Shown here one piece after another: positions 1,889 to 45,731 of a stretch of 64,000 nucleotides of DNA (position 1 is the stretch's first letter; each line of letters starts with the position of its first letter). Origin of the DNA: Minisyncoccota bacterium (GTDB lineage Bacteria; Patescibacteriota; Minisyncoccia; Phycocordibacterales; Phycocordibacteraceae); the NCBI GenBank assembly GCA_018062765.1, contig JAGORR010000001.1, positions 356,930-420,929 of the forward strand, read 5' to 3'. The position numbers were made by a program, and so were the translations under genes. A model generated the notes under the pieces. That model did no database searches. It was not told where the DNA came from and saw only the letters and a program-made list of their open reading frames with translations.

Positions 1889-4360
1889 ATGGCAAAAGCT
1901 AAGGAGCCTGAAGCAGGAGGGGAAGCCGCGCCGGTACAGCGCGTCATACAGCAGTCGATTACGGGCGAGATGCGCACGTCGTATCTCGACTACGCGATGT
2001 CCGTCATTACCTCGCGCGCCCTGCCTGATGTGCGTGATGGCCTCAAGCCGGTGCATCGCCGCATCCTCTTTACGATGCGCGAAGCAGGCCTCACGCCGTC
2101 CGCAAAGTTCCGTAAGTCAGCGACGGTGGTCGGAGACGTGCTCGGTAAGTATCACCCTCATGGCGACGTCGCCGTCTACGACTCCATGGCTAAGATGGCG
2201 CAGGATTTCTCATACCGGTATCCGCTTGTCATGGGTCAGGGAAACTTCGGATCCATCGATGGCGATTCTCCTGCTGCCTACCGTTATACGGAGGCGAAGA
2301 TGTCGCGCCTTTCCGACGAGCTTCTCGCAGACCTCGAGAAGGACACGGTGACCTGGGGCGCCAACTACGACAACACCCGACAGGAACCGAAGGTGCTTCC
2401 GGCGGCGCTCCCGAATCTTCTTTTGAACGGAACGTTGGGCATCGCTGTTGGTATGGCGACCAACATCCCGCCGCATAACCTGAAGGAGGTGGTAGATGCG
2501 ACCGTGCACCTTATCGATGAGCCGGAGGCGACAACCGATGACCTCCTGGGAATCGTGAAGGGTCCTGACTTCCCTTTGGGCGGCATCGCATTCAATCAGG
2601 CAGACATCAAGCACGCGTACGCTAACGGCAAGGGCGGCGTTGTCGTGCGCGGCGAGGCAGAGATTGTCGAGGACAAGAAGGGAAGCCACATCGTGATCAC
2701 TTCTATTCCGTATCGCGTTAACAAGGCAGAACTCATCACGCGCATCGCGGAGTTGGTGCAGGAGAAGAAGCTCGAGGGCGTCCGCGACCTTCGCGATGAG
2801 TCAGCGGCAGACATTCGCGTCGTTGTCGAGCTTAAGGGCACTGCACACCCGCAGGCGGTATTAAACGCTCTCTATAAGCACACGGAATTGGAGTCCACCT
2901 TCCACTACAACATGCTGGCGCTCGTCGACGGTGTGCCGCAGACGCTGTCCTTGAAGGGTATGCTCGAGCACTTCATCGAGCACCGCAGGGAGGTGGTGAA
3001 GCGTCGCACGGAGTACGACCTCCGGAAGGCCGAGGAGCGCGAGCATATCCTCTTGGGACTCTCGAAAGCGCTCGATCATATCGACGAGGTCATCGCCATA
3101 ATCAAGAAATCAGCGGACGTTGCTGCGGCTTCCTTGGCGCTCCAGAAGAAGTTCGCGTTCTCGCAGATACAGGCGGCAGCGATTCTCGAGATGCGCCTTT
3201 CGAAGCTTGCAGGCCTCGAGCGCAAGAAGATTGAGGATGAGCTTGCGGAGGTCCAGGCGCTCATCAAGAAGCTCAAAGAGATTCTCTCCTCCGCGAAGAA
3301 GATTCTCGCGGTGGTGAAGGCCGAGCTCGTCGCTATCGGCGAGAAGTACGGAGATGATCGCCGTACGAAGATCGTGAAGGGCGGAGTGAAGAACATCTCG
3401 GTCGAGGACATGGTTCCCGACGAGGAGAGCGTCTTGGTCATCACCGCAGGCGGCTATGTGAAGCGCACTAACCCATCAGAGTACAAGGCGCAGAAGCGCG
3501 GTGGCGTTGGTGTTATCGATATGTCTACCAAAGAAGAGGATGTGGTGACCCACTTCCTTTCTACTTCGGCGCACTCCGACCTTCTCTTCTTCACGAATCT
3601 CGGCAAGGCGTACCAGACCAAGATGTACGACATCCCAGAAGGAAGGCGCGCAACGAAGGGGAAGTCCATCATGAACTTCCTGCCTTTTGCAGCCGAGGAG
3701 AAGGCGACATCAGTGCTTGCGGTTCCAAAGGGCGCCGAGCGGGATGCCTTGTCTGTGTTCTTCGTGACCGAGCAGGGCGTCGTGAAGAAAGTTGCTGCCA
3801 AGTCATTCGCTGACGTGCGCAAGTCCGGCATCATCGCGATAAACCTCAAGGGCGGAGATAAGCTCGTCTCCGCGCACTTGGCCTCCGAGGGGGATACCAT
3901 TTCCATAGTGACCGCGAAGGGGCAATCGATACGGTTTGCGGCAGACGACGTGCGCGAGATGGGGCGCACGGCGGCGGGTGTGCGCGGCATGTCTGTGAAG
4001 AAGGGAGACTCGGTAGTTTCCGCAGAAGTCATTCCAGCTGCGGACGAGAAGCACGCAGCGCTCCTCGTCGTCATGGCCAAAGGGTATGGCAAACACACAT
4101 CTATCGATGAGTACAAAATTCAGGGACGCGGTGGATCGGGTATTAAGACCGCAGAGGTGACCGGCAAGACTGGTGAGATTATCGGCGCGAAGGTTCTCAC
4201 GGGTGAATTTAAGGAGGATGAAATCGTCGTCATCTCGAAGAAAGGCCAGGTCATCCGCACGAAGGTGGGGGAGATTTCGAGCCTTGGACGCGCGACGCAG
4301 GGGGTACGCATTATGAAGTTGCGAGAGGGAGATGCCATCGCCTCCATGGTGGCGTTGTAA
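1889..4360 (+). CDS. gyrA: DNA gyrase subunit A
   Basis: 823 aa. Hallmarks are [41 protein letters not shown] (catalytic Tyr region) and C-terminal beta-pinwheel repeats. Confidence 0.97.
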
Positions 4361-8786: not shown

Positions 8787-9215
8787 ATGAAAAAGACATT
8801 CTCCGCCCTATTGTTTTCACTAGCGCTCATGTTCACACTTACACCGTCCATTGCCTTTGCGCAGGGCCAGCAGCAGCCGCAACCTGATCAGCAGGGCACG
8901 GGTGAGTCACAGCCGAGCGAGCTCGAGCTTCGTATCGGATGGCTTCTCGACTTCGTCGATGGGTACGTCATTCCGCTCATATTCGGACTCGCATTCGTCG
9001 TATTCATCTGGTTCGTGTTCGTGTACTTCATCCTTGGCGGAGCTGAGGAAGAGCAGCGCGCTAAAGGAAAGCAGTTCCTGTTGTGGAGTCTTATTGGGTT
9101 CGTACTCATGCTCTCCTTGTGGGGTATCGTGAACCTGCTTCAGAACACCATAGGATTCGATAATAACTCCAAGCCGTGTCTGCCGGTGTTCGAACAGGAC
9201 AACGAAGACTGCTAA
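8787..9215 (+). CDS. VirB2/TrbC-like pilin paralogue 3
   Basis: Signal peptide ...SIAFA/QG. Module is FVVFIWFVFVYFILGGAEEEQRAKGKQFLLWSLIGFVLMLSLWGIVNLLQ. Confidence 0.7.
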   Translation: MKKTFSALLFSLALMFTLTPSIAFAQGQQQPQPDQQGTGESQPSELELRIGWLLDFVDGYVIPLIFGLAFVVFIWFVFVYFILGGAEEEQRAKGKQFLLWSLIGFVLMLSLWGIVNLLQNTIGFDNNSKPCLPVFEQDNEDC

Positions 9216-9299
9216 TGCGGTTGTCCCCACAGTGCACCCCATACGATTGACTTCGCGCCAAAGCCGCTTACCCTTAGTACATATCCGCTTACCACTGCT

Positions 9300-9689
9300 A
9301 TGAAGAAAATTCTCTTGCTCGTCGCTCTGTTCACCATCCCGGCCATTGCGTTCGCGCAGTTTGGCGAAGGCGGTAATAATCAGGACCTTGGCGATCTCGG
9401 TCAGGAGTTCACTGACATCATCAATAACATCGCGGTTCCGCTTATCTTCGCGCTCGCGTTCGTCATCTTTATTTGGGGAGTATTCAAGTACTTCATTCTT
9501 GGTGGCGGAGACGAGGAGGCTCGCGAGAAAGGTCGCGACCTCATGATTTGGGGACTTCTGGGATTCTTCTTCATGATTTCAGTCTGGGGACTCGTGAATC
9601 TCGTCGTGAACACCATCGACCTGGAGCAAAGCGGAGCACCGGACGAAAATGACTTGCCGGACGCTCCGGGAGTCAGGGACTCGAACTAA
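9300..9689 (+). CDS. VirB2/TrbC-like pilin paralogue 4
   Basis: Signal peptide ...AIAFA/QF. Module is FVIFIWGVFKYFILGGGDEEAREKGRDLMIWGLLGFFFMISVWGLVNLVV. Confidence 0.7.
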   Translation: MKKILLLVALFTIPAIAFAQFGEGGNNQDLGDLGQEFTDIINNIAVPLIFALAFVIFIWGVFKYFILGGGDEEAREKGRDLMIWGLLGFFFMISVWGLVNLVVNTIDLEQSGAPDENDLPDAPGVRDSN

Positions 9690-9704
9690 CTCATAGTGTA
9701 GGCG

Positions 9705-9729
9705 AAAAGACCCGCTCGGCGGGTCTTTT
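9705..9729 (+). terminator. intrinsic terminator
   Basis: aaaaGACCCGC-tcg-GCGGGTC-TTTT. Confidence 0.7.
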
Positions 9730-9783
9730 GCTATCCCCGATTAGTACGTGCCATAGATGAGTGCGGATATATACTGAACAGTA

Positions 9784-10053
9784 ATGAACGAAAGAGTAGA
9801 GATACCGCTTCTTGAGGGCATCAAAACGCAGATAGTGAATCCCATCATCACGCTTCTAGCGCTTGGAGCATTTGTAATGTTTCTTTGGGGTCTCGTCGTA
9901 TTCATATGGAATGCCGGGGATGCGGAGGCGCAGTCGACGGGGAAGCGCGTCATGCTGTGGGGTGTCATTGGGCTTGTTGTCATATTCGGTGCGTGGAGCA
10001 TTGTGGAGCTTATCGGAAGCACGATAGGGGTAGACCCAAATCAGTACCGGTAA
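9784..10053 (+). CDS. VirB2/TrbC-like pilin paralogue 5
   Basis: 89 aa. Module is GAFVMFLWGLVVFIWNAGDAEAQSTGKRVMLWGVIGLVVIFGAWSIVELIG. Confidence 0.65.
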   Translation: MNERVEIPLLEGIKTQIVNPIITLLALGAFVMFLWGLVVFIWNAGDAEAQSTGKRVMLWGVIGLVVIFGAWSIVELIGSTIGVDPNQYR

Positions 10054-10621: not shown

Positions 10622-11860
10622 TCAGATGTTCTTGGTTGCATTATGGCCGACAGCGGCGTCGAGAAGGCTGTTGCCGCTCGACTGCACGATGACCTTTTTT
10701 GCAGTCCCGCGCCGGGCTTGTACCCGGTCGAGAGCCTCGGTCAAGGTCATGATAGACTCCTTTGTTTTTTCAGAAGACTTTTCGGACGCCGCGACGAGCT
10801 TGAGCGCTTGCTCGAGTTCGGCATCGCTGTCCTTATCCTCGGCACGCTTCTCTGCGTCTTCCGCTGCGGCCTTGTTCTGTGCCAGTAGCATCACAGCATC
10901 TGGAGTGAGACGCGCGACGTTGAATCGCGTGATCTTAACACCAAGCTGCCGTACGTCACCGACACCGTTCGCAACCGCAGTGTTGAGGAAGAACTCAATC
11001 TCCTTCTCAACCTCGCGTTGCGCGGCGCGCTGCTCCTTCGCTTCGAGGCCCGCGCCTGCCTCAAGGAAGTAGGCTACGGGGTCGTCGATCGCTTTAAGCG
11101 TTCCGTCCTGAGTCTTCGCCTCGTAGTTCGTGGCAGTGATACCGAGACGTTTGATCTGCGCTTCGTCGACTTTCCCGCTTGCGTCGCGAGGAAGCTCAGC
11201 CATCTTGGTGTTCGCGATCATCGTGATGAGCTGAACGGATAGTGGAAGCTTGAGGAACAGGAACTGCTCCCAGGTATGGAAGAGTGCTGCACCACGCATG
11301 GCCTCCTTCGTCATGCCTTCAACGATGCTTCGGACGCCGTTCATGAGGCCGCTCTTGATCAACTCCTTCATGCGCTGAGGCCCGATCGGTCTTCCGCTGT
11401 CGTCCTTGGCTTCATGGTCTGGCTCGATCGTAAGATCGACCTTCACATCCACGGAACCGCCCGCGGTCTGTTTGCCCTCCTTGTCGGTCGCCTTGCAGGT
11501 GACCGAGAATGGGGCAAATTCGACATCGAGACGGGTTACGTCAATTGGTATCAGGCCGATTTCAAACGGCAGGTAGTCTGCCGTCATGTAGTCGCCTGGT
11601 CCGACGAGGATGTCCTGCGGTTCGCCATAGCAAGTCACCAAGGCGACATGCTGCGGCTTGGCAGAGACGTTCGTTTTCCAGCCCATCTTCACCATGAGGA
11701 TTCCGAGAGTGGCAAAGCTGACACCCATGAGGTAGTTCCCGTCGACTCGGTAGGCGAGAAACGCACAGAGCGCGCCGACCGCCATAAGTATGACGGCGAT
11801 GCGCCACAACTTCGAACTGAAGTCAGGACCGACTATGTATTGGCTTACAAGGTTCTTCAT
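10622..11860 (-). CDS. SPFH/band-7 (flotillin/prohibitin-like) membrane protein with coiled-coil tail
   Basis: 412 aa. Two N-terminal TM helices. SPFH-like core (HVALVTCYGEPQDILVGPGDYM..LPFEIGLIPIDVTRLDVEF). Ala/Glu/Lys-rich C-terminal coiled coil. Confidence 0.7.
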   Translation of the reverse strand: MKNLVSQYIVGPDFSSKLWRIAVILMAVGALCAFLAYRVDGNYLMGVSFATLGILMVKMGWKTNVSAKPQHVALVTCYGEPQDILVGPGDYMTADYLPFEIGLIPIDVTRLDVEFAPFSVTCKATDKEGKQTAGGSVDVKVDLTIEPDHEAKDDSGRPIGPQRMKELIKSGLMNGVRSIVEGMTKEAMRGAALFHTWEQFLFLKLPLSVQLITMIANTKMAELPRDASGKVDEAQIKRLGITATNYEAKTQDGTLKAIDDPVAYFLEAGAGLEAKEQRAAQREVEKEIEFFLNTAVANGVGDVRQLGVKITRFNVARLTPDAVMLLAQNKAAAEDAEKRAEDKDSDAELEQALKLVAASEKSSEKTKESIMTLTEALDRVQARRGTAKKVIVQSSGNSLLDAAVGHNATKNI

Positions 11861-11898
11861 TCCTATGACCCTCCTGGTCGTTAAGGTTCCCTGTATGT

Positions 11899-11927
11899 AT
11901 TATACACCACAGCCCACACAATGTCAA
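11899..11927 (-). promoter_or_regulatory. consensus sigma70 promoter of the SPFH operon (TTGACA-17 nt-TATAAT)
   Basis: Minus strand reads cTTGACAttgtgtgggctgtggtgTATAATac. RBS AGGAGGG lies before ATG 11860. Confidence 0.7.
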
Positions 11928-11974
11928 GCGTCAAATCAAGAAAAGAGCTCATAGGTACGGGCTCGTTTGTCGAT

Positions 11975-12128
11975 TGCTGGGGGAGGGCTTGGTCAGGCGC
12001 TCATTCGTCGCCGTCGCTCCTCACTCCGCCTGACCACCCTCGCGTGACAGACTTTGCTAAGTCTGTAGACCGCGCTCGGTTTCAAGTCTCCACCCCATGC
12101 CATTGCGGCTGCTTGCGCAGCCTTTATG
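11975..12128 (-). repeat. tRNA-trailer structured element, copy A (distal to tRNA-Leu-TAG)
   Basis: In tRNA orientation the order is:
- hairpin GGCTGC-gcaa-GCAGCC
- GGAGACTTGAA, antisense to the tRNA T-arm
- ACAGACTT-AGCA-AAGTCTGT
- GGTCAGGCG..(GAGTGAGG..GACG loop)..CGCCTGACC
- CAAGCCCTCCCCCAGCA, mimicking the tRNA 3' end. Confidence 0.8.
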
Positions 12129-12282
12129 TGCTGGGGAGGGCTTGGCGAAGCGTCTGCCGATCGTCGTCACTCCCGGCTCCGCTCGGCCCTGCTCGCACGA
12201 CACGGCGTGCTCGCCGCGTAGACCGTGCTTGCGTTCAAGTCTCCACCCATGCCTCTGCGCCAGGCTTGTGTCTGGTTACGTG
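12129..12282 (-). repeat. tRNA-trailer structured element, copy B (adjacent to tRNA-Leu-TAG)
   Basis: Also 154 nt. In tRNA orientation the order is:
- GCCT-ggcgcag-AGGC
- GGAGACTTGAAC
- ACGCGGCG-AGCA-CGCCGTGT
- GCCG-gGAGTGACGACGat-CGGC
- CCAAGCCCTCCCCAGCA. Confidence 0.8.
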
Positions 12283-12364
12283 TGCTGGGGAGGAGACTTG
12301 AACTCCTAACCCGTGAGGGACATGGTCCTAAGCCATGCGCGTATACCAATTCCGCCACCCCAGC
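12283..12364 (-). tRNA. tRNA-Leu (anticodon TAG), class II long variable arm
   Basis: Hand-folded. Acceptor GCTGGGG/CCCCAGC. Anticodon arm CATGG-cTTAGga-CCATG. T arm AGGAG-TTCAAGT-CTCCT. Discriminator A. No encoded CCA. Confidence 0.9.
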
Positions 12365-12416
12365 GTCCTTCACAGAATACTACGATTTGTTATATTGCGT
12401 TCTGTCGCGCCTATAG

Positions 12417-12489
12417 CTCAGTTGGTAGAGCAGATCCCTCTTAAGGATAAGGTCCCTGGTTCGAGCCCAGGTAGGCGCACTAACACGAA
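12417..12489 (+). tRNA. tRNA-Lys (anticodon CTT)
   Basis: Hand-folded. Acceptor GCGCCTA/TAGGCGC. Anticodon loop CTCTTAA. T arm CCTGG-TTCGAGC-CCAGG. Confidence 0.9.
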
Positions 12490-12639
12490 AAAGTCCTGGT
12501 CTGCACCAGGACTTTTCGGTTAGTGCGCGACGGAACCATGTTTTGCGAGCGCGCAAAACCGGTGAGCCAGGGTCGTAGCCTGAAGTGAGTGTCGACGAGC
12601 TTCAGGGCTATGACCACGTGCGAGGCACAGCGATGTTTT
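12490..12639 (+). repeat. tRNA-trailer structured element after tRNA-Lys
   Basis: Order:
- terminator-like H1 AAAAGTCCTGGT-ctgc-ACCAGGACTTTT
- TGCGCgaCGGAACCA (antisense-like to the tRNA 3' end)
- GTTTTGCG-AGCG-CGCAAAAC
- GGTCGTAGCCTGAAG-tgAGTGTCGACGag-CTTCAGGGCTATGACC
- ..GAGGCACA (compare tRNA end TAGGCGCA). Confidence 0.65.
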
Positions 12640-12725
12640 GTCTGCAGATAAAACCACGAGCCGGGATAGCGGAATTTCATGAATAATGACTAATGAAATA
12701 TCCGTGACCACAAATTGCAAAACGT

Positions 12726-13562
12726 TTAGATACCAGCGTACTTTCTGAATCGTCCAATTAGGTCAGTCGTGAGGGTCCCTGGCTTACCGCTGCCTACCTT
12801 ACGGTCATCGATGCGGATGACCGGCACTACGTCCTTGAACGACGAGGTGATAAACACCTCATCAGCGTTCCAAACGTCGTCCATGCTGACTGCGCGCTCT
12901 TCGGTCTTGTAACCGGCTTCAGCCGCAAGCTCTAGGATGACCTTCCTGGTAATGCCATGCAATACGCCCTCCTTCGCCGTGATAACCACTTTGTCCTTCA
13001 CGATGAACGCGTTTGATGTCGAGCACTCGAGCATGTTGCCGTTTGCGTGGTACAGGATTTCGAGTGCGTTCGCGGCTCGTCGCTTAGGCTGTAGCATCAC
13101 CGCATTTATGTAATTGATGGTCTTGTACTCCGGCATCATGCGCTGGTGCTCGCTCGTGATGAGAGAAACGCCATCAGTAAACACTTCGGGCGCAAGCACA
13201 AATGCCGGCTCGCAATTTATGAAGAATGTCTCGCGTCCAGGAACGTGCTCAAGCCCTCCGAGCGCTTCTCCGCCAGTAAGAACGACACGTACGGTTGCGC
13301 GCGTATCTGGTGAGTTGCGCTTGGCGATCTCTATCAGGGCAGCCTCAAACGCGTCGCGCTCGATAGGAATGGTAAGGGAGAGGGCAGCCGCTGACTTCAG
13401 TAACCGCTGCCAGTGGTCTTCGAAGCGAAACGGCTTTCCGCCAATGACCGTAATGCCCTCATAGACACCGTAGGAGCGTAGGACGCCGAGATCGAGGATG
13501 CCCACCTTCGCCTCCTGAAGCGGAAGAAATGCCCCATTAAGAAAGGCGACAGGCTCGTTCAT
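12726..13562 (-). CDS. class IV aminotransferase (branched-chain / D-amino-acid aminotransferase family)
   Basis: ORF track 12726..13700 runs into tRNA-Leu, so the start is taken at ATG 13562 (MNEPVAFLNG). Family pattern includes EYKTINY (PLP lysine region) and FITSSFKDVVPV. Confidence 0.85.
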   Translation of the reverse strand: MNEPVAFLNGAFLPLQEAKVGILDLGVLRSYGVYEGITVIGGKPFRFEDHWQRLLKSAAALSLTIPIERDAFEAALIEIAKRNSPDTRATVRVVLTGGEALGGLEHVPGRETFFINCEPAFVLAPEVFTDGVSLITSEHQRMMPEYKTINYINAVMLQPKRRAANALEILYHANGNMLECSTSNAFIVKDKVVITAKEGVLHGITRKVILELAAEAGYKTEERAVSMDDVWNADEVFITSSFKDVVPVIRIDDRKVGSGKPGTLTTDLIGRFRKYAGI

Positions 13563-13625
13563 CGGAGGATTATAACAGCAGTAATGTGTTATGGGTTTCT
13601 CGATATATGCTAGAACTAGTCGTAC

Positions 13626-13708
13626 GCCAGGGTGATGGAACGGTAGACATAGGGGACTTAAAATCCCCAGCTGTAACAAGCGTGTGGGTTCGACTCCCAC
13701 CCCTGGTA
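13626..13708 (+). tRNA. tRNA-Leu (anticodon TAA)
   Basis: Hand-folded. Acceptor GCCAGGG/CCCTGGT. Anticodon arm GGGGA-cTTAAaa-TCCCC. Long variable arm. T arm GTGGG-TTCGACT-CCCAC. Confidence 0.9.
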
Positions 13709-13738
13709 CTCGGTAGGGCGTGATAGGATTCTGCCATC

Positions 13739-13810
13739 GGCCCGATGGTGAAGTGGTAACACGGGGGACTGCAAATCCTCTATGCGCGGGTTCAATTCCC
13801 GCTCGGGCCT
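13739..13810 (+). tRNA. tRNA-Cys (anticodon GCA)
   Basis: Hand-folded. Acceptor GGCCCGA/TCGGGCC. Anticodon loop CTGCAAA. T arm GCGGG-TTCAATT-CCCGC. Confidence 0.9.
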
Positions 13811-13950
13811 CAAATTGGACGCGCAGCGTCTAATAGCGGGAATTGAAGGCCGTAGCTATATCGTGCGAGCACGCACGATTGCGAGGCGGGGTCACGAATA
13901 AGGTCTGCTCGACGGAGCAGACCTTATTCGTGACCAGTACCGCTCTGTCT
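13811..13950 (+). repeat. tRNA-trailer structured element after tRNA-Cys
   Basis: Order:
- GACG-cgcag-CGTC
- AGCGGGAATTGAA, an exact antisense of the tRNA-Cys segment TTCAATTCCCGCT
- ATCGTGCG-AGCA-CGCACGAT
- 20-bp hairpin GTCACGAATAAGGTCTGCTC-GACG-GAGCAGACCTTATTCGTGAC
- CAGTACCGCTCTGTCT (compare tRNA CAATTCCCGCTCGGGCCT). Confidence 0.75.
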
Positions 13951-14303
13951 TAAATTTGGTTCCCTAACTCATCCATTCGCTGACGGTTCTTCTCCCCAGC
14001 ATCGTGCTCAAACTTTACAGACGGAATGGCGCGCAGACGGGACTTCTGCTTGAGGAAGGTCCGGAATTCATCGCGGTTGCGATTTAAGAAATCTAGCGCG
14101 TAGGGAAGGGCGGTGTCAGGGAACACGGTGACGAACAAGGTGGCGCGGTCACCTCTTGAGGAGAGTACTGCGCGTGTCACCGTTATAAGCGATGTGTTAT
14201 TCGATTCGCGCGCAATAAACTCAGCCGCTAGATGCGCTACCTGCTCCTCGGCGCGCTCGCCGTGATGATTTGCCTTGCCGCCCCCGGTAAATGGAAGGCT
14301 CAT
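13950..14303 (-). CDS. rbfA: ribosome-binding factor A
   Basis: 117 aa. RbfA-like core (AEFIARESNNTSLITVTRAVLSSRGDRATLFVTVFPD). Overlaps the infB stop by 4 nt, matching the conserved infB-rbfA order. Confidence 0.85.
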   Translation of the reverse strand: MSLPFTGGGKANHHGERAEEQVAHLAAEFIARESNNTSLITVTRAVLSSRGDRATLFVTVFPDTALPYALDFLNRNRDEFRTFLKQKSRLRAIPSVKFEHDAGEKNRQRMDELGNQI

Positions 14304-22126: not shown

Positions 22127-22138
22127 TCTTTATATGGG

Positions 22139-22239
22139 TGCGGCTCCCAGGTGGTCACAAATACTTCCGCGTCGACACTTGGAAGTTTCGCGACCCCGCC
22201 AAAAAGGAAAAACCTGGAGCAGTCCAGGTTTTTCCTTTT
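22139..22239 (-). repeat. tRNA-trailer structured element after tRNA-Trp (short form, no AGCA hairpin)
   Basis: In tRNA orientation the order is:
- GGAAAAACCTGGA-ctgc-TCCAGGTTTTTCC then TTTTT
- TGGCGGGG (antisense to tRNA end GCCCGCCA)
- GGTC..CTTCC-aAGTGTCGACGc-GGAAG..GACC
- ACCTGGGAGCCGCA (compare tRNA CTACTGGGCCCGCCA). Confidence 0.65.
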
Positions 22240-22313
22240 TGGCGGGCCCAGTAGGAATCGGACCTACGCTAACGGTTTTGGAGACCGTTGTACTACCACT
22301 ATACGATGGACCC
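22240..22313 (-). tRNA. tRNA-Trp (anticodon CCA), CCA end encoded
   Basis: Hand-folded. Acceptor GGGTCCA/TGGGCCC. Anticodon arm ACGGT-cTCCAaa-ACCGT. T arm GTAGG-TCCGATT-CCTAC. Confidence 0.88.
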
Positions 22314-22411: not shown

Positions 22412-23368
22412 ATGCGCCGCTTGGCACTTTACCTCCTCGCAGCTTCTCTCATACCGCTTGCCGCGGCGGCACAAGGGCTTCCGTCAGGCTCAATCATCCC
22501 GGACCTCGATGAGGGAGATCAGAACCTGCGCACGTGCGCTGCAGGTTGGAAGGCGGTTCTCATAATATCGGGAGGGTTCCTAGAGCTCGCAATTTACATC
22601 GCGATGCTTATCGCCGTTCTCGTTATCGTCTATGCAGGGATTATATTCCTGTTTAATGCGACAAACCCCGAGAACCTGTCGAAAGGGAAAAAGATTCTTG
22701 GAAACGCGGCGATTGGTCTTCTTATTACGCTTTGCGCATGGCTACTTGTGAATACGGTGCTCACAAGCCTGGGCGCAGGAGACATCGCAAGCCGCACAAG
22801 CGTCATAGGTTCAGGCGGCTCGCTCTGTATCACGATACAACCTCCGCAATCTCAAATACCAACCAGTCAGGAAGTAGCTGCCGGTTTGCCACTGGCACCA
22901 CCTCCTCGAGGTACCGGCTCGTGTGACCCGATTGCTGTGCGCGCAGCCGCAGCGGCCGGTGGGTACCAAATCTCGGAGCGAGAGGCGAACACATTTGCCT
23001 GCCTTGCAGGTCCCGAGAGCTCGTGCGGCGCAAATGTCGATGGTGCGACGACGCCTTCTGGGCAGCGTACGAGTGCAGCGGGTCCGTGGCAGAACATTCT
23101 TGGTTTTAAGGATAAGTGCCACTCACTCAACATCCCCGCCTGTGGCAACTTGCAGTGTCACCAGGCATTTTCAGGCGGAGTGGAGAAGTCTGATCCGGCC
23201 TCGAGAGCTCTCGCTGCCAAGTGTCGTCAGGCACTTGCAAACCTTACGTGCGCTGCCGCCGCAGCCGTGTGTCTTAATAACGCGAGCGGAAACGACTTCA
23301 GCGACTGGACTGCGGATTCGCGCAGCTCGAAACAGAAGAAGTGTATTCGCGACCATGCGGGGCTCTAG
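22412..23368 (+). CDS. pilin-like N-domain fused to a Cys-rich lytic-transglycosylase-like (SLT-like) domain
   Basis: 318 aa. Signal peptide. N-module is IAVLVIVYAGIIFLFNATNPENLSKGKKILGNAAIGLLITLCAWLLVNTVL. The C-domain has SLT-like motif order: PESS, GPWQNIL, LNNASGNDFSDW. Confidence 0.6.
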   Translation: MRRLALYLLAASLIPLAAAAQGLPSGSIIPDLDEGDQNLRTCAAGWKAVLIISGGFLELAIYIAMLIAVLVIVYAGIIFLFNATNPENLSKGKKILGNAAIGLLITLCAWLLVNTVLTSLGAGDIASRTSVIGSGGSLCITIQPPQSQIPTSQEVAAGLPLAPPPRGTGSCDPIAVRAAAAAGGYQISEREANTFACLAGPESSCGANVDGATTPSGQRTSAAGPWQNILGFKDKCHSLNIPACGNLQCHQAFSGGVEKSDPASRALAAKCRQALANLTCAAAAAVCLNNASGNDFSDWTADSRSSKQKKCIRDHAGL

Positions 23369-23383
23369 CGCTATACTTTACCT

Positions 23384-23926
23384 ATGAGCCGAACAGCCTT
23401 TTGGATACTCGCACTCGCATCGGTTGGGCTTTTGGCTGCTGGCACACTTTTCTATCTCAATTTGAATCCTGAGCCGGAAGCTCCTCCCATGGTAACTCCT
23501 GACCCATTTGGGAGTACTAACGATGGCGTAATTATTACGGCCGTGGGCGGGGAGGACATACGCGCTCGTGACTTCGTTAACGATGGCGAGACTGAACCTG
23601 ATCCCGGTAATCCCGGAACGTACTTCCTTGCCGGTTATTTCGGCTACTGCGACGGGGACGAGGAGTGTGAACCTATTGCAACAAGCGACTTCAACATTAA
23701 GTACGATAGCAAGATTGATGCCTTCACGATCGGTCTTGCCACCGAGCCGATAGGTGAAGTTAGGAAGCGTGCAGAAGCATTTCTAATGAAGAAGCTCGGG
23801 ATTGGGGAAAATGATATGTGTGCACTCAATTACTATGTCGGCACTTCGTATTGGGTAAATGAAACTTACTCGGGAGGTAATCTTGGGTGGAGTTTCTGTC
23901 CCGGCTCCATAGCACTTCCTGACTAG
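23384..23926 (+). CDS. hypothetical membrane-anchored secreted protein
   Basis: 180 aa. N-terminal TM helix. Acidic, Cys-containing ectodomain. Sits between the two pilin-hydrolase fusion genes. Confidence 0.55.
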   Translation: MSRTAFWILALASVGLLAAGTLFYLNLNPEPEAPPMVTPDPFGSTNDGVIITAVGGEDIRARDFVNDGETEPDPGNPGTYFLAGYFGYCDGDEECEPIATSDFNIKYDSKIDAFTIGLATEPIGEVRKRAEAFLMKKLGIGENDMCALNYYVGTSYWVNETYSGGNLGWSFCPGSIALPD

Positions 23927-23927
23927 T

Positions 23928-24839
23928 ATGCGACGTACTACGACATTGCTCCTGCTTCTCCCGTTGCTACTTACAGCTATGCCCGCGCATGCGCAGTTCA
24001 CCGAGGGCTGGACCATCGTCCCGGCAGCGTGCCATTCGTGCCCTGCGGCTTGGGTTTGCGTACTTGAGATGCTCAACAATCTGGTGACGCTCATCATGAC
24101 CATCGCGGTCTTAATCGTCGTACTCGTCATCACCTACGCCGGCATCCTGCTTGTGTTTACTGCGACGAACCCCGAGAACAAGAGCAAAGCAAAAAGCATG
24201 CTTATTAATGCTGCGGTAGGTCTCGTCATCGCTCTTGGCGCGTGGCTCATCATCGATAAGGTCCTCGAGTCTTTGGGTGCGGGCGGTATAGACGAGACAA
24301 CGCGCGTTATTGGTACCGGTGGCAGCGCATGTGTTGTTGCTCAGGATCCGATCACTGAGCCGCCTGAGGGAACGGATCCATCGCCTATTACTCCCGGTCC
24401 TGGCGGTGGAGGCAGCGGCGCTAATTGCCCGGTCCCGGCGGCGTCCGGGATGGTGGCATTCCCTGCGGAGGCTACAAGCGGTGAAACTGAATACGCAACA
24501 CCGAGTACGGTCGAGAACTTCCTTGCGATGCGCGCCGCAGCGCTTGCCGATGGAATTGACATTAAGGTGACTGACGGATATCGGTCCGAAGCCGAACAGG
24601 TTCAGTTATGGTATCGCTACAATCAGGACACGAGCCAAGTCGCAAGGCCGTGTACGCTAGGTGGCAGCGGTTCAAACCACAACTCAGGTGTCGCTCTGGA
24701 CCTCACCGTCGGCTGTAGAAAGACAGATAGTTCCTGTGATAGCGCCCAATACCGATGGCTTAAAGCAAATGGTTCTCAGTGGGGCTTCAACAACAATTTG
24801 CCTACCGATACGGTGCACTGGTCACCATCGGGTCGCTAG
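23928..24839 (+). CDS. pilin-like N-domain fused to a peptidase M15 (VanY-type D,D-carboxypeptidase) domain
   Basis: 303 aa. Signal peptide. N-module is IAVLIVVLVITYAGILLVFTATNPENKSKAKSMLINAAVGLVIALGAWLIIDKVL. M15 motifs are VTDGYRSEAEQ, SNHNSGVALDL (SxHxxGxAxD) and DTVHW. Confidence 0.75.
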   Translation: MRRTTTLLLLLPLLLTAMPAHAQFTEGWTIVPAACHSCPAAWVCVLEMLNNLVTLIMTIAVLIVVLVITYAGILLVFTATNPENKSKAKSMLINAAVGLVIALGAWLIIDKVLESLGAGGIDETTRVIGTGGSACVVAQDPITEPPEGTDPSPITPGPGGGGSGANCPVPAASGMVAFPAEATSGETEYATPSTVENFLAMRAAALADGIDIKVTDGYRSEAEQVQLWYRYNQDTSQVARPCTLGGSGSNHNSGVALDLTVGCRKTDSSCDSAQYRWLKANGSQWGFNNNLPTDTVHWSPSGR

Positions 24840-28196: not shown

Positions 28197-28362
28197 CAAA
28201 GCGCGAAGCGCGCATGGTCGGGGAGTACCCTGCCTGCGCAGGGTACGTGAGAGACTTGAACGCCGGAGCGATGATTCGTCAGCAGACGAATCCGCGAGGC
28301 AAGGCTATGAAAATTCTCGAGTGACGGCGAGAGAATTATTCCTGGCCAAGCCTTCCCCGGCA
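28197..28362 (+). repeat. tRNA-trailer structured element, copy 1 after tRNA-Leu-CAA
   Basis: Order:
- TACCCTG-cctgcg-CAGGGTA
- GAGAGACTTGAAC, a 13-nt exact antisense of the tRNA T-arm
- GATTCGTC-AGCA-GACGAATC
- AATTCTC-gAGTGACGGCg-GAGAATT
- CCAAGCCTTCCCCGGCA (mimic). Confidence 0.8.
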
Positions 28363-28509
28363 CATGAAGCACGCGCAGCGTGCGAAGGGCTCGTGGGTGG
28401 GACTTGAACGCCGGAGCGATGCTTCATCAGCAGATGAAGCCGTGAGCTGGGGTCGCGGAAAATGCCATGTGACGACATGGCATTTATTCGCGACCAAGCC
28501 ACCCCGGCA
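28363..28509 (+). repeat. tRNA-trailer structured element, copy 2 after tRNA-Leu-CAA
   Basis: Order:
- GCACG-cgcag-CGTGC
- GGGTGGGACTTGAAC
- GCTTCATC-AGCA-GATGAAGC
- GGTCGCG..AAATGCCATGT-GACG-ACATGGCATTT..CGCGACC
- AAGCCACCCCGGCA. Confidence 0.8.
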
Positions 28510-42989: not shown

Positions 42990-45731
42990 ATGGAGGGAAC
43001 ACGGCAGCTTACGACTCCCGAGGAGGAGCTTGCCTACTTGCGTGCGCAAGTAGAGGAGAAAGAACGCGAGCTCGCGGGGCGCGCGCAGGAAGCACCGCGC
43101 AACACTCTCGTGCACGAGCGTATCCTTCATCACCGGCGCGAGATGCCAGAGACGGTGCTCGCTCCGTCCTACAAGCTACCTGAAGCTGAAGTGGAAGGCA
43201 TCGCGCTGGATCTCGATCCGGATGATAACGACGCAACGATGGCGGAACTTCAGGGAATCATGGAGGAGAAGGGTATCAAGAATGCGCTCTCGGTCCTTGA
43301 AAAGCTCCGGAATCCGCATCTCGATGACGACTTCCATCGATTCCTGGTGCAGTACGTCGTCGCTGGAATGCAGGTGAAGGGGCTCGGGGAACGGGAACCA
43401 GCATGGAAGGCGCTCCACATGACTCTCTACGAGGTCATCCTTCCGGAGCCCGGCAAGGACTCGGACGCGCGAGAGAAGACCTTGAAGGAACTCATCTCCT
43501 CGATGGAGCAGTTCTATGCAGGCATGCTCTCGGTGGGGGATGCGAGCGCGAGCGAGCCGGGCTATTTCTCGATGGAGCTCGCTGTTCCCGCTAATCGTCC
43601 GGAGCTCCTTTTCTATGTCGCTGTGCCTAACGGCAAGCGCGCGCTCTTTGAGCAGCAGCTCTTGGCAACCTTTCCGAACGCGAACATTCGTCCGCAGCCG
43701 AACGATTACAACATATTCAGCGAGGATGGCGTTGCCGTAGGCGCCTCTGCGACGCTAGCTGACAAAGGCGTGCTTCCTCTCAAGGATTATGCTGATTTCG
43801 ACTACGACCCGTTGAATACGGTTCTGGGTGCCTTCGCGAAGATCGAGAAGGCGAGCGAGGGAGCGGCGCTCCAAGTCATCATCGAGCGCGATACGCACCA
43901 CCTGGAACATTACCGCCGGATACTCGGAGCGCTCCGTCGCGGCGAATCGAAGGATCGTGCGCTCTCGATGCCGGAGACATTCGTGGGCGAGGCCGCGCGC
44001 GAGATCGGGTCAGCGCTCTTCCCGGGCTCACGCAAATGGGAGAACGAAGTTGAGAAGAGAGCCGAAAGGAAAGATGGGAACCAGGCTTTGATTGAGCAGA
44101 TAGAGAAGAAGATCGCAGCTCCCATCGTAAAGACGACGCTCCGTCTCATGGTGTCCTCGCCGACCCACACCCGCGCGGAGTCAGGGCTCGCGGACCTTGA
44201 GGCGGCATTCAATCAGTTCACCAACACCGTAGGCAACAAAATCAACTGGAATCGGTTCTCAGGCACCAAGGTACAGAGCCTTTTCCATGCATTCTCTTAC
44301 CGTTTGCCGGCGAAGGACGCGATACCGCTTTCTCTTCGAGAGGTCACGAGCCTCTACCACTTCCCGCCCGAGGGCATCAGCTCTACGCCGCAACTCCGGC
44401 AGTCGCGCTTCACTGCGGCCGCTGCGCCCTTGGATCTCCCTGACTCGGGGACGTATCTCGGGGATAACGAGTTCCGCGGACGGAAGACTGCGGCATTCCT
44501 GTCGCCGGAGGACCGCATGCGGCACCTCTATGTCGTCGGACAGACGGGAACCGGTAAGTCGGTATTCATGAGGAATCTCGCCATACAGGACATCAAGGCA
44601 GGGAACGGCGTCTGCTTCATCGACCCCCACGGGAACGACATCCTCGATATCCTCGCGGCTGTACCTCCCGAGAGATACGAGGATGTCATCTATTTCGATC
44701 CGGCGAACCTGGCGCGTCCGTTCGGCCTCAACTTGCTTGAATACGATGCGAGCCGCCCAGAGCAGAAAACCTTCATCGTTAATGAGATCCTCGCGATATT
44801 CCGCCGCCTCTACGGGGACGTGCCGGAGTCGATGGGTCCTGCGTTCGAGCAGTACTTCCGCAACTCAACCCTCCTGGTGATGGAGGACCCGGCATCGGGC
44901 TCGACCTTACTCGATATCGCGCGAGTCCTTTCGAACAAGGAGTTCCGCGACCTGAAACTCTCGCGAAGTAATAATCCGGTCATAAACCAGTTCTGGAACG
45001 AGATAGCGACGAAGGCTGAAGGAGAGGCATCGCTTCAAAACATCGTTCCGTACATCACTAACAAGTTCGATGACTTCACCGCGAACGACTTCATGCGGCC
45101 AATCGTCGGGCAGCAGGAATCCTCGTTCAAATTCCGTGAGGTGATGGACAACAAGAAGATACTCCTTGTGAACCTCTCTAAAGGAAGGCTCGGGGAACGA
45201 AACGCCAACCTCCTGGGCCTCATCCTCGTCGGGAAGATATTCATGGCTGCGCTCTCTCGTGCAGATAACCCGAGGGCAGACTACGCGCCGTTCTACCTCT
45301 ATATCGACGAATTCCAGAACATAACTACGGACTCCATACCGGGAATCCTCTCCGAGGCTCGCAAATACCGGCTTTCGCTTACCATGGCGCACCAGTTTCT
45401 GGCGCAGGTGGATGAGAAGGTGCGGGATGCCGTGTTCGGGAACGTCGGCTCCATGGCCGTGTTCCGCGTCGGCGAGGAAGATGGCGAGTACTTCGAGAAG
45501 CAGTTCGCGCCGGTGTTCTCCGCGCTCGATTTCGTGAACATAGAGAATTACAACGCGTACGTCAGACTCCTTGCGCGCGGCGTGCCGCAGAAGCCATTCA
45601 ATATAAAGACGCCGCCACCGGCCGCCACGAACCCTGCGCAGGTGGACGACCTCAGAGAGCTCTCAGCACTCGTCTACGGCCGCGACCGTACACAGGTGGA
45701 AAACCTTATCAGAAGCAGGTACATGTCATAA
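42990..45731 (+). CDS. TraD/VirD4-like FtsK-HerA-superfamily ATPase (type IV coupling-protein-like) with a large soluble N-terminal domain
   Basis: 913 aa. Walker A VVGQTGTGKS. Walker B FYLYIDEFQN. SEARKYRLSLTMAHQFLAQ is typical of the TraD/TraG C-terminal region. I found no N-terminal TM helix. Confidence 0.7.
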   Translation: MEGTRQLTTPEEELAYLRAQVEEKERELAGRAQEAPRNTLVHERILHHRREMPETVLAPSYKLPEAEVEGIALDLDPDDNDATMAELQGIMEEKGIKNALSVLEKLRNPHLDDDFHRFLVQYVVAGMQVKGLGEREPAWKALHMTLYEVILPEPGKDSDAREKTLKELISSMEQFYAGMLSVGDASASEPGYFSMELAVPANRPELLFYVAVPNGKRALFEQQLLATFPNANIRPQPNDYNIFSEDGVAVGASATLADKGVLPLKDYADFDYDPLNTVLGAFAKIEKASEGAALQVIIERDTHHLEHYRRILGALRRGESKDRALSMPETFVGEAAREIGSALFPGSRKWENEVEKRAERKDGNQALIEQIEKKIAAPIVKTTLRLMVSSPTHTRAESGLADLEAAFNQFTNTVGNKINWNRFSGTKVQSLFHAFSYRLPAKDAIPLSLREVTSLYHFPPEGISSTPQLRQSRFTAAAAPLDLPDSGTYLGDNEFRGRKTAAFLSPEDRMRHLYVVGQTGTGKSVFMRNLAIQDIKAGNGVCFIDPHGNDILDILAAVPPERYEDVIYFDPANLARPFGLNLLEYDASRPEQKTFIVNEILAIFRRLYGDVPESMGPAFEQYFRNSTLLVMEDPASGSTLLDIARVLSNKEFRDLKLSRSNNPVINQFWNEIATKAEGEASLQNIVPYITNKFDDFTANDFMRPIVGQQESSFKFREVMDNKKILLVNLSKGRLGERNANLLGLILVGKIFMAALSRADNPRADYAPFYLYIDEFQNITTDSIPGILSEARKYRLSLTMAHQFLAQVDEKVRDAVFGNVGSMAVFRVGEEDGEYFEKQFAPVFSALDFVNIENYNAYVRLLARGVPQKPFNIKTPPPAATNPAQVDDLRELSALVYGRDRTQVENLIRSRYMS

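Follow-up and report, generated by a model that had tools for sequence, protein, structure and literature searches.

What are the two non-coding units that stand in tandem behind a tRNA-Leu(TAG) gene of a Minisyncoccota bacterium, and why does each of them carry the 3' end of that tRNA in both orientations? The locus lies in a stretch of 64,000 nt of contig JAGORR010000001.1 (positions 356,930 to 420,929 of the forward strand), the whole of which is called the window here, and the pair occupies window positions 11975-12282 (- strand), head to tail and directly 3' of the tRNA gene. The first-pass annotation had placed two tandem structured units of 154 nt at this site and was accurate to the base. 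The units belong to a large, undescribed family of elements of ~110-170 nt without open reading frames (ORFs), which in Paceibacteria-type Patescibacteria stand directly 3' of genes for stable RNAs, nearly always of tRNA genes; full-text searching of the literature found no description of such elements, and the family appears to be new in kind. The arms, derived from the target and exact to the position, imply guide-directed insertion or a control of tRNA precursors of a kind not yet described. The reading that is favoured here, with a confidence somewhat short of even, is that the unit is a non-autonomous insertion element homing to tRNA 3' ends, the folded single strand of which mimics the target duplex.

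Read in the direction of the tRNA, each focal unit consists of a hairpin (H1), an antisense block, a second hairpin (H2), the junction bases GAG, a third hairpin (H3) and a copy of the tRNA 3' end, hereafter the mimic; this anatomy, as first annotated, is confirmed by the sequence, by inverted repeats and by folding. The antisense block GGAGACTTGAAC is the exact complement of GTTCAAGTCTCC in the tRNA at 12/12 positions (inverted repeats I2 and I3), which in unit 1 span the T-loop and the 3' strand of the T-stem. In both units the block reads GCATGGG(G)TGGAGACTTGAA, and complementarity extends into the acceptor 3' strand. H2 has a lower stem, a bulge and an upper stem of 7-8 bp with an AGCA loop, H3 is closed by GGYC...GRCC with the apex GA-GYGACGRC-GA, and the units terminate in CCAAGCCCTCCCC(C)AGCA, which equals the tRNA sequence TCAAGTCTCCTCCCCAGCA minus two bases (a 2-nt gap). 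Sequence common to both units is confined to short stretches (direct repeats D1 and D3), and Tandem Repeats Finder did not report the pair as a tandem repeat because the copies are too diverged. The H2 and H3 stems differ in sequence between the units and both sets still pair. The duplex predicted between arm and tRNA 3' end has an energy of -30.6 (unit 1) and -32.2 (unit 2) kcal/mol, compared with -15.2 and -18.5 kcal/mol for each arm and its own mimic. The arm of unit 2 still complements tRNA-Leu(TAG) and not the decayed mimic of unit 1, which lies immediately upstream.

The same plan recurs elsewhere in the window. A covariance model, R1, was built from six window units (MAFFT alignment, RNAalifold structure) and run without filters over the 64 kb, where it recovered the six training units, a copy behind tRNA-Trp and a degenerate copy at 12629-12710, and no other significant match. 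Recurrence behind tRNA-Lys, tRNA-Cys, tRNA-Trp and tRNA-Leu(CAA) had been claimed correctly, while the family size given for the window, seven, rises to eight with the degenerate copy. Every copy lies directly 3' of a tRNA gene and in the same orientation as that gene, and at least one copy is found at five of the seven tRNAs whose trailers fall inside the window. Unit 1 has the H1 loop GGCGCAG; the typical loop of the family is CTGC (38/90 units), not GCGCAG.

Covariation had first been noted in the H2 stems of the focal pair, which are unrelated and yet paired, and it extends throughout the structure. Double compensatory changes were present in 25/32 pairs among the six window copies (MAFFT/RNAalifold) and at 32/32 pairs among 91 copies aligned to the model, in which 94.8% of pair cells were canonical, compared with 68% in column shuffles, and 715 cells were compensatory, compared with 198 ± 12 (0/500 shuffles reached 715). 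When partners were slid by 1-3 columns as a control, pairing fell to 29-41%. The 91-copy alignment was fitted to the model and its metagenome members were chosen by the core pattern; the independent MAFFT/alifold result and the unbiased subset of copies from genome loci agree with these figures.

The core has the consensus ...AG-GSC-GGA-GCG-A-TG(H2, AGCA loop)CGC-GA-GSC-GGGGTCGCGRAA(H3)TATYCGTGAC-C... and forms a conserved three-way junction composed of GSC-GGA-GCG, H2 with its AGCA loop, CGC-GA-GSC, H3 and GTGAC; genomes that carry it span 43-77% GC. The GSC:GSC pair alternates between C-G and G-C (45 versus 39). At the base of H3 a G·U pair is kept in 76/91 copies, and 29 copies have G·U at a second position. 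When every stem is counted there are 156 G·U and 13 A·C pairs, and with the two conserved positions removed the figures are 51 and 12 (p=7e-7). As G·U far outnumbers A·C, the selected fold is that of the tRNA-sense single strand, either RNA or single-stranded DNA; the fold is strand-specific and not a symmetric double-stranded palindrome. Kissing between the H1 loop (CTGC) and the H2 loop (AGCA) was considered and dropped, there being no association between loop types, and so was a K-turn at the GGA/GA internal loop, where, judged by eye, the 3-nt bulge is missing.

The arms are tuned to the neighbouring gene. For the 68 copies within 110 nt of a tRNA, arms were scored without gaps against the last 24 nt of their own and of other tRNAs. 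For the 5' arm the median score was 11 when compared with the reverse complement of its own tRNA and 5 with that of other tRNAs (p=4e-17), and the 3' arm copy scored 8.5 and 4.5 respectively (p=3e-14), which bears out the statement that both blocks are retuned to each cognate tRNA. Many 3' arms are exact copies of 16-21 nt that run past the discriminator by 1-3 bases, including an encoded CCA. Junctions were counted in 30 units of the T-loop type with exact arms of at least 8 nt, from ~15 tRNA species. In 27 of these T54 is the first position of the antisense stretch, and in three it is G53; the copy begins at C56 in 18 and later in 12, the latter being consistent with decay of the copy start; between the T54 and C56 starts there is therefore a constant offset of 2 nt. 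Where copy and tRNA differ, the antisense arm sides with the tRNA at 10/10 positions and never with the copy. In many units (L113, L110, L121, L127 and Leu(CAA) unit 1 of the window; L-numbers label loci of related genomes and metagenomes that were compared with the window) H1 splits the arm at the boundary of T-stem and acceptor (65/66 ±1), and the helix P1, formed by arm and copy, then equals acceptor stem plus T-stem. In Leu(CAA) unit 1 the acceptor part is GGTCGGGGAG and the T-arm part GAGAGACTTGAAC.

A second type of arm is found behind Lys, Arg, Ile, Val and Trp genes and comprises only the last few bases of the tRNA together with a hairpin that belongs to the element, AAAGACAGAAA-stem-CTGC-stem-TTTCTGTCTTT, and also serves as a terminator; the copy of the Lys/Arg/Ile type begins 2-3 nt before the tRNA end. 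This AAAGACAGAAA-stem-CTGC-stem hairpin recurs at different tRNAs, whereas empty sites have unrelated ordinary terminators, so H1 belongs to the element. Features of an intrinsic terminator are present in H1 of the Lys and Trp copies, absent from H1 of the focal, Leu(CAA) and Cys copies, and never seen in the core. A T-run is absent from 42/68 spacers between tRNA and unit, and 26/68 contain a terminator-like hairpin with a T-run. At sites without a tRNA (L157, L115) the arms correspond to the sequence that stands immediately 5' of the hairpin; this sequence, X, is CACAACATCTTTTC in L157, the arm ATGTTGTGTG and the copy CACACATCTTTTC. Fossil T-loop arms are retained inside the new arm in L115, L129 and L140. 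The features of the focal locus and the other window copies are collected in Table 1.

Table 1. Positions of the focal units, their parts and the other family members in the window
Feature	Position	Strand	Length	Evidence	Remarks
tRNA-Leu(TAG)	12283-12364	-		ARAGORN; Rfam tRNA, 57.6 bits	T-loop-to-discriminator end is the source of the arms, in both orientations
Unit 1, tRNA-proximal	12129-12282	-	154 nt	covariance-model match 12129-12250, 105.6 bits	
Unit 1 H1 hairpin	12251-12265	-		read from sequence	GCCT-GGCGCAG-AGGC
Unit 1 antisense arm	12233-12252	-		inverted repeat I3	GCATGGGTGGAGACTTGAAC; reverse complement of tRNA ~53-72
Unit 1 H2	12195-12228	-			lower stem GCACG/CGTGC, bulge, upper stem CGCGGCG/CGCCGTG, AGCA loop
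Unit 1 H3	12144-12188	-			closing GGCC...CGCC; apex GA-GTGACGAC-GA
Unit 1 mimic	12129-12145	-			CCAAGCCCTCCCCAGCA; decayed direct copy, tRNA T-loop C56 to discriminator A73
Unit 2, distal	11975-12128	-	154 nt	covariance-model match 11975-12098, 91.8 bits	
Unit 2 H1 hairpin	12107-12122	-		folding/sequence	GGCTGC-GCAA-GCAGCC
Unit 2 antisense arm	12080-12100	-		inverted repeat I2	GCATGGGGTGGAGACTTGAAA
Unit 2 H2	12041-12075	-			upper stem CAGACTT/AAGTCTG, AGCA loop; sequence unrelated to unit 1, yet paired
Unit 2 H3	11991-12035	-		folding	GGTCAGGCG...CGCCTGACC
Unit 2 mimic	11975-11992	-		sequence comparison	CCAAGCCCTCCCCCAGCA
tRNA-Lys unit	12480-12629	+	150 nt	86 bits	H1 intrinsic-terminator-like (CTGC loop, T-run)
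Second Lys unit	12629-12710	+		29.4 bits, E=4e-7	degenerate, AT-richer, H2 and H3 only
tRNA-Cys unit	13811-13952	+	142 nt	covariance model, 107.6 bits	
tRNA-Trp unit	22137-22242	-	106 nt	30.7 bits	without H2; terminator-like H1, CTGC loop
Leu(CAA) unit 1	28197-28362	+	166 nt	covariance model, 116.9 bits	
Leu(CAA) unit 2	28363-28509	+	147 nt	covariance model, 106.2 bits	

The search was extended to relatives and to metagenomes, and the family proved widespread in both, with ~115 further copies, most of them behind tRNAs. Relatives collected through IF-2 (86-43% identity) were metagenome-assembled genomes of Patescibacteria labelled Paceibacteria, Parcubacteria, Kaiserbacteria or Minisyncoccia, with the conserved synteny infB-rbfA-tRNACys-tRNALeu(TAA)-...-tRNALys-tRNALeu(TAG). 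R1 detected 25 further copies in 57 related genome loci, almost all directly behind tRNA-Cys, Leu(TAA), Leu(TAG), Leu(CAA), Lys or Trp, and gave no significant match in 433 kb from other phyla. In metagenomes the pattern of the conserved core matched at least 120 stretches; R1 was applied to 80 of these loci and found 93 copies, 69 of which have a tRNA on the same strand within 400 nt upstream, mostly 20-70 nt away, while eight lie at contig ends. The host tRNAs represent ~30 anticodons for Leu, Arg, Val, Ile, Ala, Glu, Cys, Trp, Lys, Asn, Pro, Thr, His, Tyr, Asp, Ser and Met. A single copy stands behind a tmRNA gene (L144), where the arms are tuned too, another ~230 nt 3' of a 16S rRNA gene (L157), and several behind terminator-like hairpins without a recognisable RNA gene. 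An origin in phages or plasmids was rejected, as the core pattern gave one false positive only in IMG/VR, a GC-rich coding repeat. Over 53 related loci, orthologous sites were occupied at 8/46 (Cys), 3/42 (Leu(TAA)), 7/36 (Lys), 2/34 (Leu(TAG)), 1/5 (Leu(CAA)) and 4/23 (Trp), or 6-20% overall. Copy-rich genomes are few (the window genome, L004, L024 and L121, with five copies) and most relatives have none.

Some further trailers resemble the units. Those behind tRNA-Trp in L028 (~4226-4300) and L047 (~4171-4250), where an acceptor antisense stretch and a hairpin are followed by GTAGGAATCGAAG, fall below the R1 threshold, and a minimal trailer with H3 only lies behind tRNA-Leu(TAG) in L014 (11769-11840); the diversity of the family therefore exceeds what R1 captures. 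One sub-family, behind Leu(TAA) and Lys genes (L005 12159-12292, L006 12078-12203, L033 3631-3756), has a longer, sequence-conserved H3 apex (…GAGAGTGCGAGAC.GATTGCGAATAC.TGGAGCAAT…CGCAACTC), which may be an additional functional module.

The units are not protein-coding, as the ORFs drawn over them (11921-12301 and others) match no Pfam family at E<=0.01 and the substitutions are paired changes in stems, not codon-like; the earlier suspicion that these ORFs are spurious was correct. Nor do the units belong to a known RNA family. At the gathering thresholds of Rfam 15 only tRNA genes matched in the window, at E<=10 over 11900-14000 the units were overlapped only by chance miRNA-type matches of ~18 bits, and there was no match on units in 16 + 7 other loci. 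Models of tRNA, tmRNA, Y RNA, riboswitches, ribozymes and T-box thus give no match at gathering or permissive E-values, in agreement with the first judgement that the element is not tmRNA, RNase P, SRP, T-box or a known riboswitch. Certain tRNA-like domains (the tRNA-like domain of tmRNA, YrlA, mascRNA and viral tRNA-like structures) share with the units a helix resembling acceptor plus T-stem and ending in a discriminator; unlike these, the units have no T-loop or elbow and match no Rfam model, and their helix is isoacceptor-specific and taken from the adjacent gene.

In presumed mode of action, the known systems nearest to the units are folded single-strand recombination sites and tRNA-targeting integrative elements; in being programmable, the units recall the EBS/IBS pairing of group II introns, IS110 bridge RNAs and tigRNAs. 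One-strand exchange of a folded strand underlies the integration of integron cassettes (attC x attI) and of CTX phage (folded attP x dif). Sites of the attC and CTX attP(+) type (the latter of integrative mobile elements exploiting Xer, IMEX; served by IntI or XerCD) are like the units in being small (~60-150 nt) and ORF-less, with structure kept over sequence, in having one functional strand whose inverted arms fold to imitate a double-stranded site, and in occurring in arrays, and one-strand exchange yields the order target-left, element, target-right. The units likewise have a strand-specific fold and a stem that imitates the target duplex. An attC site differs in its R''/R' boxes (RYYYAAC...GTTRRRY) and in the position of the integron next to intI, whereas the arms of the units are copies of the upstream tRNA around a conserved internal three-way junction, and their sites are tRNA, tmRNA and rRNA trailers without a linked integrase. 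Membership in attC was rejected on both counts: in alignments judged by eye the arm ends are tRNA-derived (GGAATCGAA on one side, CGATTCC on the other) with no GTTRRRY, and the units stand in a housekeeping context behind tRNA, tmRNA and rRNA genes, with no intI cassette array. The conserved ends of the units are AG-GSCGGAGCG and GTGAC.

Elements that target tRNA and tmRNA genes (prophages, integrative and conjugative elements, islands and their deleted derivatives, the cis-mobilizable elements or CIMEs) also insert at the 3' end with a duplication that starts at the T-loop or acceptor; they leave the tRNA intact, supply the sequence beyond the crossover and accrete in tandem. The direct repeat of the tRNA 3' end that flanks such inserts is present at the units (C56 start in 18/30; exact over 16-21 nt). 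In contrast to the units, with 110-170 nt, these elements measure kilobases and carry the gene of an integrase specific for one tRNA, or descend from elements that do; the units in addition carry an inverted copy of the site, have one core over ~30 tRNA species and show RNA-like covariation. An element of the integrase type was rejected, as the units are ORF-less, the neighbourhoods of ~80 units (3 kb; 288 ORFs clustered, the clusters without a Pfam run) hold no recurrent family and no transposase-like recurrence, and the large ORFs of the window are housekeeping genes.

Guide-bearing elements, which include group II introns (exon- and intron-binding sites, EBS/IBS), IS110 bridge RNAs and the tigRNAs of TIGR-Tas, resemble the units in an internal target-complementary segment that is re-tuned per site. 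In IS110 and TIGR the segments match both DNA strands, as here, and class C group II introns likewise insert beside terminator hairpins. The units lack an intron or ribozyme core (Rfam) and a transposase or Tas gene, and their arms cover one stretch and pair with each other, where guide-bearing systems read adjacent half-sites in open loops. In a TIGR array the tigRNA units, each of 36 nt, follow one another in tandem beside a tas (Nop-domain) gene, and each has a pair of 9-nt spacers set between box C/D-like motifs (10.64898/2026.07.30.739390); by this definition the units, of 110-170 nt, with a different core and no linked gene found, are not a TIGR array. Repeats such as REP/BIME, ERIC, Correia and BOX/RUP are also short, numerous, non-coding intergenic hairpins, often near terminators and patchy between strains, but have fixed terminal sequences unrelated to the adjacent gene; none is confined to stable-RNA 3' ends and none has arms copied from a gene. 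The inverted arms of the units differ at every site because they copy the local tRNA, and a miniature inverted-repeat transposable element was rejected, there being no family-specific terminal inverted repeats and no fixed duplication (~15-55 nt).

Several observations bear on insertion and turnover. Cores behind tRNA-Pro(GGG), Trp, Arg(GCG) and Lys on different contigs are 85-92% identical, and their arms differ. Perfect direct repeats of 34-55 nt, which include the hairpin after the tRNA, flank some copies (L024 and the young copies of L033 and L051); overall the length of the duplicated stretch varies over ~15-55 nt. Long perfect X-H1-X' hairpins of ~24 bp occur (L047; X' being the antisense arm), and tandem unit pairs recur and are not limited to the focal site. 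The closest relative is L004, with 86% identity in IF-2. Its Leu(TAG) unit is an orthologue in which H2 and H3 have changed by compensation and the arm has kept up with a substitution in the tRNA T-stem. The H1 of this unit resembles that of window unit 2 and its core that of window unit 1, a mixed resemblance that suggests recombination between units. The Cys unit of L004 has an H1 and an arm nearly identical to those of the window Cys unit and completely different H2 and H3 stems, and from this comparison looks as if its core had been exchanged.

A homing element could account for the observed order as follows. The active form would be a single strand, X-H1-X'-core, of single-stranded DNA or derived from RNA, which might be a circle or a fold; it would fold as a dumbbell in which the X':X stem reproduces the target duplex from the tRNA T-loop to the 3' end. 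A putative recombinase or nuclease, encoded elsewhere and acting in trans, would recognise the conserved core, and a one-strand exchange would take place at T55|C56, or at the acceptor end in copies of the Lys/Arg/Ile type. The predicted product on the sense strand, tRNA(...T55)-X-H1-X'-core-X-old trailer, has the order that is observed, and insertion would leave the tRNA intact while duplicating its 3' end. Tandem pairs such as 11975-12282 may arise from a second insertion or from unequal crossing-over between X copies. Candidate routes by which the arms could be re-tuned at a new tRNA are guide-directed choice of target, gene conversion from the downstream native copy and palindrome correction, and the inserted element would be co-transcribed with the tRNA as a structured trailer. 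A bolder form of the proposal, which we regard as doubtful, is that the units are a new class of programmable element: an ORF-less, structured single strand of ~100 nt (RNA or single-stranded DNA), whose antisense guide and sense copy would between them recognise the two strands of the final ~20 bp of any stable-RNA gene and which an enzyme in trans, reading only the conserved three-way-junction core, would insert at T55|C56, with a guide- or homology-directed choice of site unrelated to CRISPR, IS110 bridge RNAs, TIGR and group II introns.

Of the three hypotheses offered in the first-pass annotation, that of a miniature non-autonomous integrative element fits the evidence best, although an even chance would overstate it. 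It is favoured because the duplication has a fixed start in the T-loop, occupied sites are patchy, cores are shared between different tRNAs, tmRNA and rRNA trailers are used and H1 is borne by the element; it is further supported by the local tuning of the arms, the direct repeats, the tandem arrays and a single-strand fold under selection in units without coding capacity or a linked gene. Other observations weigh against it. No recombinase, nuclease or reverse transcriptase was linked to the elements among the window genes and the neighbours of ~80 units, no circular or excised form was seen, and exact-protein look-ups of neighbouring genes gave strains near-identical to the window with identical units and no pair of empty and filled alleles within one strain. 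To serve ~30 targets, a sequence-specific recombinase would have to read nothing but the conserved T-loop or take its guidance from the arms, and a move to a new tRNA would transiently yield a chimeric tRNA. The direct repeats that contain the whole terminator hairpin (L033, L115) are not predicted by a simple crossover in X. The arm follows the tRNA and not its partner strand (10/10) and is predicted to bind it better by ~15 kcal/mol, which is also expected from an antisense function at the RNA level or from templated palindrome correction. Compensatory changes accumulated over a long time at an orthologous site point to selection on the resident unit and not merely to a decaying parasite, and because metagenome copies were selected by the core pattern, conservation of the core looks inflated.

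The main rival, possible and in our estimate rather unlikely, keeps the hypothesis of antisense control over tRNA maturation alive: the unit would be a cis-acting trailer RNA, co-transcribed with the tRNA and clamping its 3' end. The arm would pair either with the tRNA T-arm and acceptor 3' strand, in a long hairpin with H1 at its tip, or with the downstream copy (P1), as a two-state switch or as a platform on which the conserved core would dock a protein or ligand, and would control maturation, quality control or degradation (e.g. by an RNase III-type cut) of the upstream stable RNA; the copy would resemble the tRNA only since both must pair with one arm. That the units are always tRNA-oriented and immediately 3' of the gene agrees with this, as do the sense-strand-specific fold with its conserved G·U and the 42/68 spacers that lack a T-run and make read-through likely. 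It also agrees with the tracking of the tRNA, not the mimic, by the arm at 10/10 informative positions, with an arm that covers T54-T55, which the mimic lacks, and with the stronger predicted pairing to the tRNA (about -31 versus -15 kcal/mol in unit 1). Evolution of the orthologous unit by compensation, following a tRNA T-stem change, and the additional sites at tmRNA and 16S genes, which are strongly transcribed stable-RNA genes, point the same way. Yet an occupancy of 6-20% of orthologous sites, with most relatives copy-free, is odd for a maturation device; 26/68 copies lie behind a terminator-like hairpin with a T-run; tandem and decaying copies (12629-12710) occur; the exact C56 start and the extension into trailer or terminator look like DNA duplication and not like a need for pairing; and harm would be expected where a single-copy tRNA faces a -30 kcal/mol competitor for its T-arm. 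Such an antisense clamp on the 3' half of a tRNA would be without precedent in tRNA maturation. Trailer function and homing are not exclusive, as an inserted element would be transcribed with its tRNA where the T-run is absent, the case in the majority of copies (42/68).

The remaining explanations are less probable. Template switching during replication, with a nascent strand that turns at H1 and at the core to give a direct-inverted-direct triplication, would require neither a dedicated enzyme nor a function, and the arms would stay perfect through quasi-palindrome correction to the tRNA sequence, which is under selection. This accounts for the order of the repeats with a hairpin at each turn, the correction of the arm to the tRNA and not the mimic, the ~24-bp perfect hairpins of L047 and the terminators inside direct repeats (L033, L115); we judge it improbable, since the spread of one ~90-nt core to ~30 tRNA sites in many genomes, the exact T54 and C56 junctions, the strand-specific fold of the core, its conserved unpaired junction bases and the conserved G·U are left unaccounted for. 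A stable tRNA-like small RNA, released by processing of the RNase P/RNase Z type and acting as a minihelix mimic or decoy, is given equally little credence. Its P1 would consist of the cognate acceptor stem, T-stem and discriminator and would titrate or recruit the CCA-adding enzyme, a synthetase, a toxin or a phage nuclease. The geometry proposed earlier is real: in split arms H1 at 65/66 ±1 makes P1 branch where the tRNA body would emerge, and discriminator and CCA often lie within the copies. This is weak evidence of function, because it follows automatically from the arm being a reverse complement; moreover the T-loop is paired, leaving no tRNA elbow, Rfam models of tRNA, tmRNA and Y-RNA-like molecules do not match, the focal mimics are decayed with a weak P1 (-15 to -18 kcal/mol), and the distribution is patchy. 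Plain attL/attR scars of integrase islands or prophages that were later deleted from tRNA genes are very improbable and already largely refuted. Direct repeats of the tRNA 3' end that start in the T-loop, and the alternative use of tmRNA genes, are typical of tyrosine-integrase elements (sublocation classes), and insertions such as HNH genes do accumulate in the tRNA spacers of this clade. However, not one of ~115 units flanks or lies beside an island or an integrase, and no protein family is found repeatedly within 3 kb of them; the gaps that were inspected contained HNH genes or unrelated ORFs and no integrase. Scars would also not be expected to preserve, in genomes that range from 43 to 77% GC, a ~90-nt core with covariation and a strand-specific fold, or an antisense arm that fits each tRNA exactly.

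If the units are mobile, they would be the smallest site-directed insertion elements known, with the choice of target written in two short arms, and would point to a recombination or nuclease activity in Patescibacteria whose specificity comes from nucleic-acid pairing; activities of this sort have repeatedly been turned into tools for genome engineering. If they act as RNA, they would represent a new and widespread class of structured RNA on the tRNA, tmRNA and rRNA precursors of a vast uncultivated radiation. Either reading explains why spurious ORFs and breaks in the assembly recur behind the tRNA genes of these bacteria, makes the units a likely substrate for the frequent inversions and shuffling of tRNA clusters, and supplies resources of the Rfam type with a well-supported new family (91 aligned members, 32/32 pairs covarying).

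Rearrangement was seen near the focal locus itself. In strains 98.3-98.8% identical to the window (L206 4480-4661, L209 1665-1836) tRNA-Lys has the opposite orientation and lies 47 nt after an aminotransferase gene, while in the window (12365-12736) the inverted tRNA-Lys and its units alter the end of that gene from ...KYAQLD-stop to ...KYAGI-stop. More distant relatives, too, differ from one another in the orientation of tRNA-Lys and in the order in which the Leu tRNAs stand. The tRNA-Lys inversion may plausibly be due to recombination between units of opposite orientation.

Long tRNA spacers of relatives were also inspected for larger elements with unit ends; they contained a free-standing HNH gene, a receiver-like ORF and a 706-aa ORF, and no integrase with unit ends. 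The free-standing HNH endonuclease ORF (~150 aa) occupies the tRNA-Cys/tRNA-Leu(TAA) spacer in L007 (~11990-12455), L010, L026, L038 and L046, ends a few nt before tRNA-Leu(TAA) and has among its motifs ...KCEECGW...IELDHINGD...NLRILCPNCHS...; it might relate to double-strand breaks at tRNA genes. The same spacer holds the receiver-domain-like ORF in L012 and, on the other strand, the 706-aa ORF in L022. At window 13988-14001 (+), 36 nt past the Cys unit and within the 3' end of rbfA, the sequence TCTTCTCCCCAGCA matches the tRNA-Leu(TAG) 3' end TCTCCTCCCCAGCA at 13/14 positions (inverted repeat I9) and may be a relic copy or a chance match. In L157 (100-780) the 16S rRNA gene is broken after ...AAGTCGT by an intron of ~680 nt, with a sub-threshold group I match (36 bits) and an ORF bearing the LAGLIDADG-like motif VVGLVDGEGYFSV; the 16S 3' end there is ...GGAACATATCC in place of the usual GGATCACCTCC. 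A fluoride riboswitch (46.7 bits) in L132 (795-880), near a unit-bearing tRNA-Val locus, is unrelated to the units.

The window is otherwise ordinary chromosome. It encodes GyrA, TopA, DprA, SerRS, Dus, DnaX, TGT, UvrA/B/C, MiaA, ClpB, ParB, RelA/SpoT, IF-2, RbfA and a cluster of type IV secretion system (T4SS)-pilin paralogues; the large ORFs are housekeeping genes, and no integrase, transposase or reverse transcriptase was seen in the 64 kb. Two adjacent, very large ORFs at 42990-45731 and 45744-49547 (+), of 913 and 1267 aa, match no Pfam family at E<=1e-5. A promoter resembling the consensus (TTGACA-N17-TATAAT) is located at 11885-11930 (- strand), between unit 2 and the gene for a 412-aa membrane protein (10622-11860), which read-through from tRNA-Leu(TAG) and the units would also reach. 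Clusters of small T4SS-pilin (PF18895/TrbC-like) paralogues, which are typical of episymbiotic Patescibacteria, occur at 8787-10022 and 22412-24839 and also in L001-L003, and one paralogue is fused to a VanY-type peptidase domain (23928-24839).

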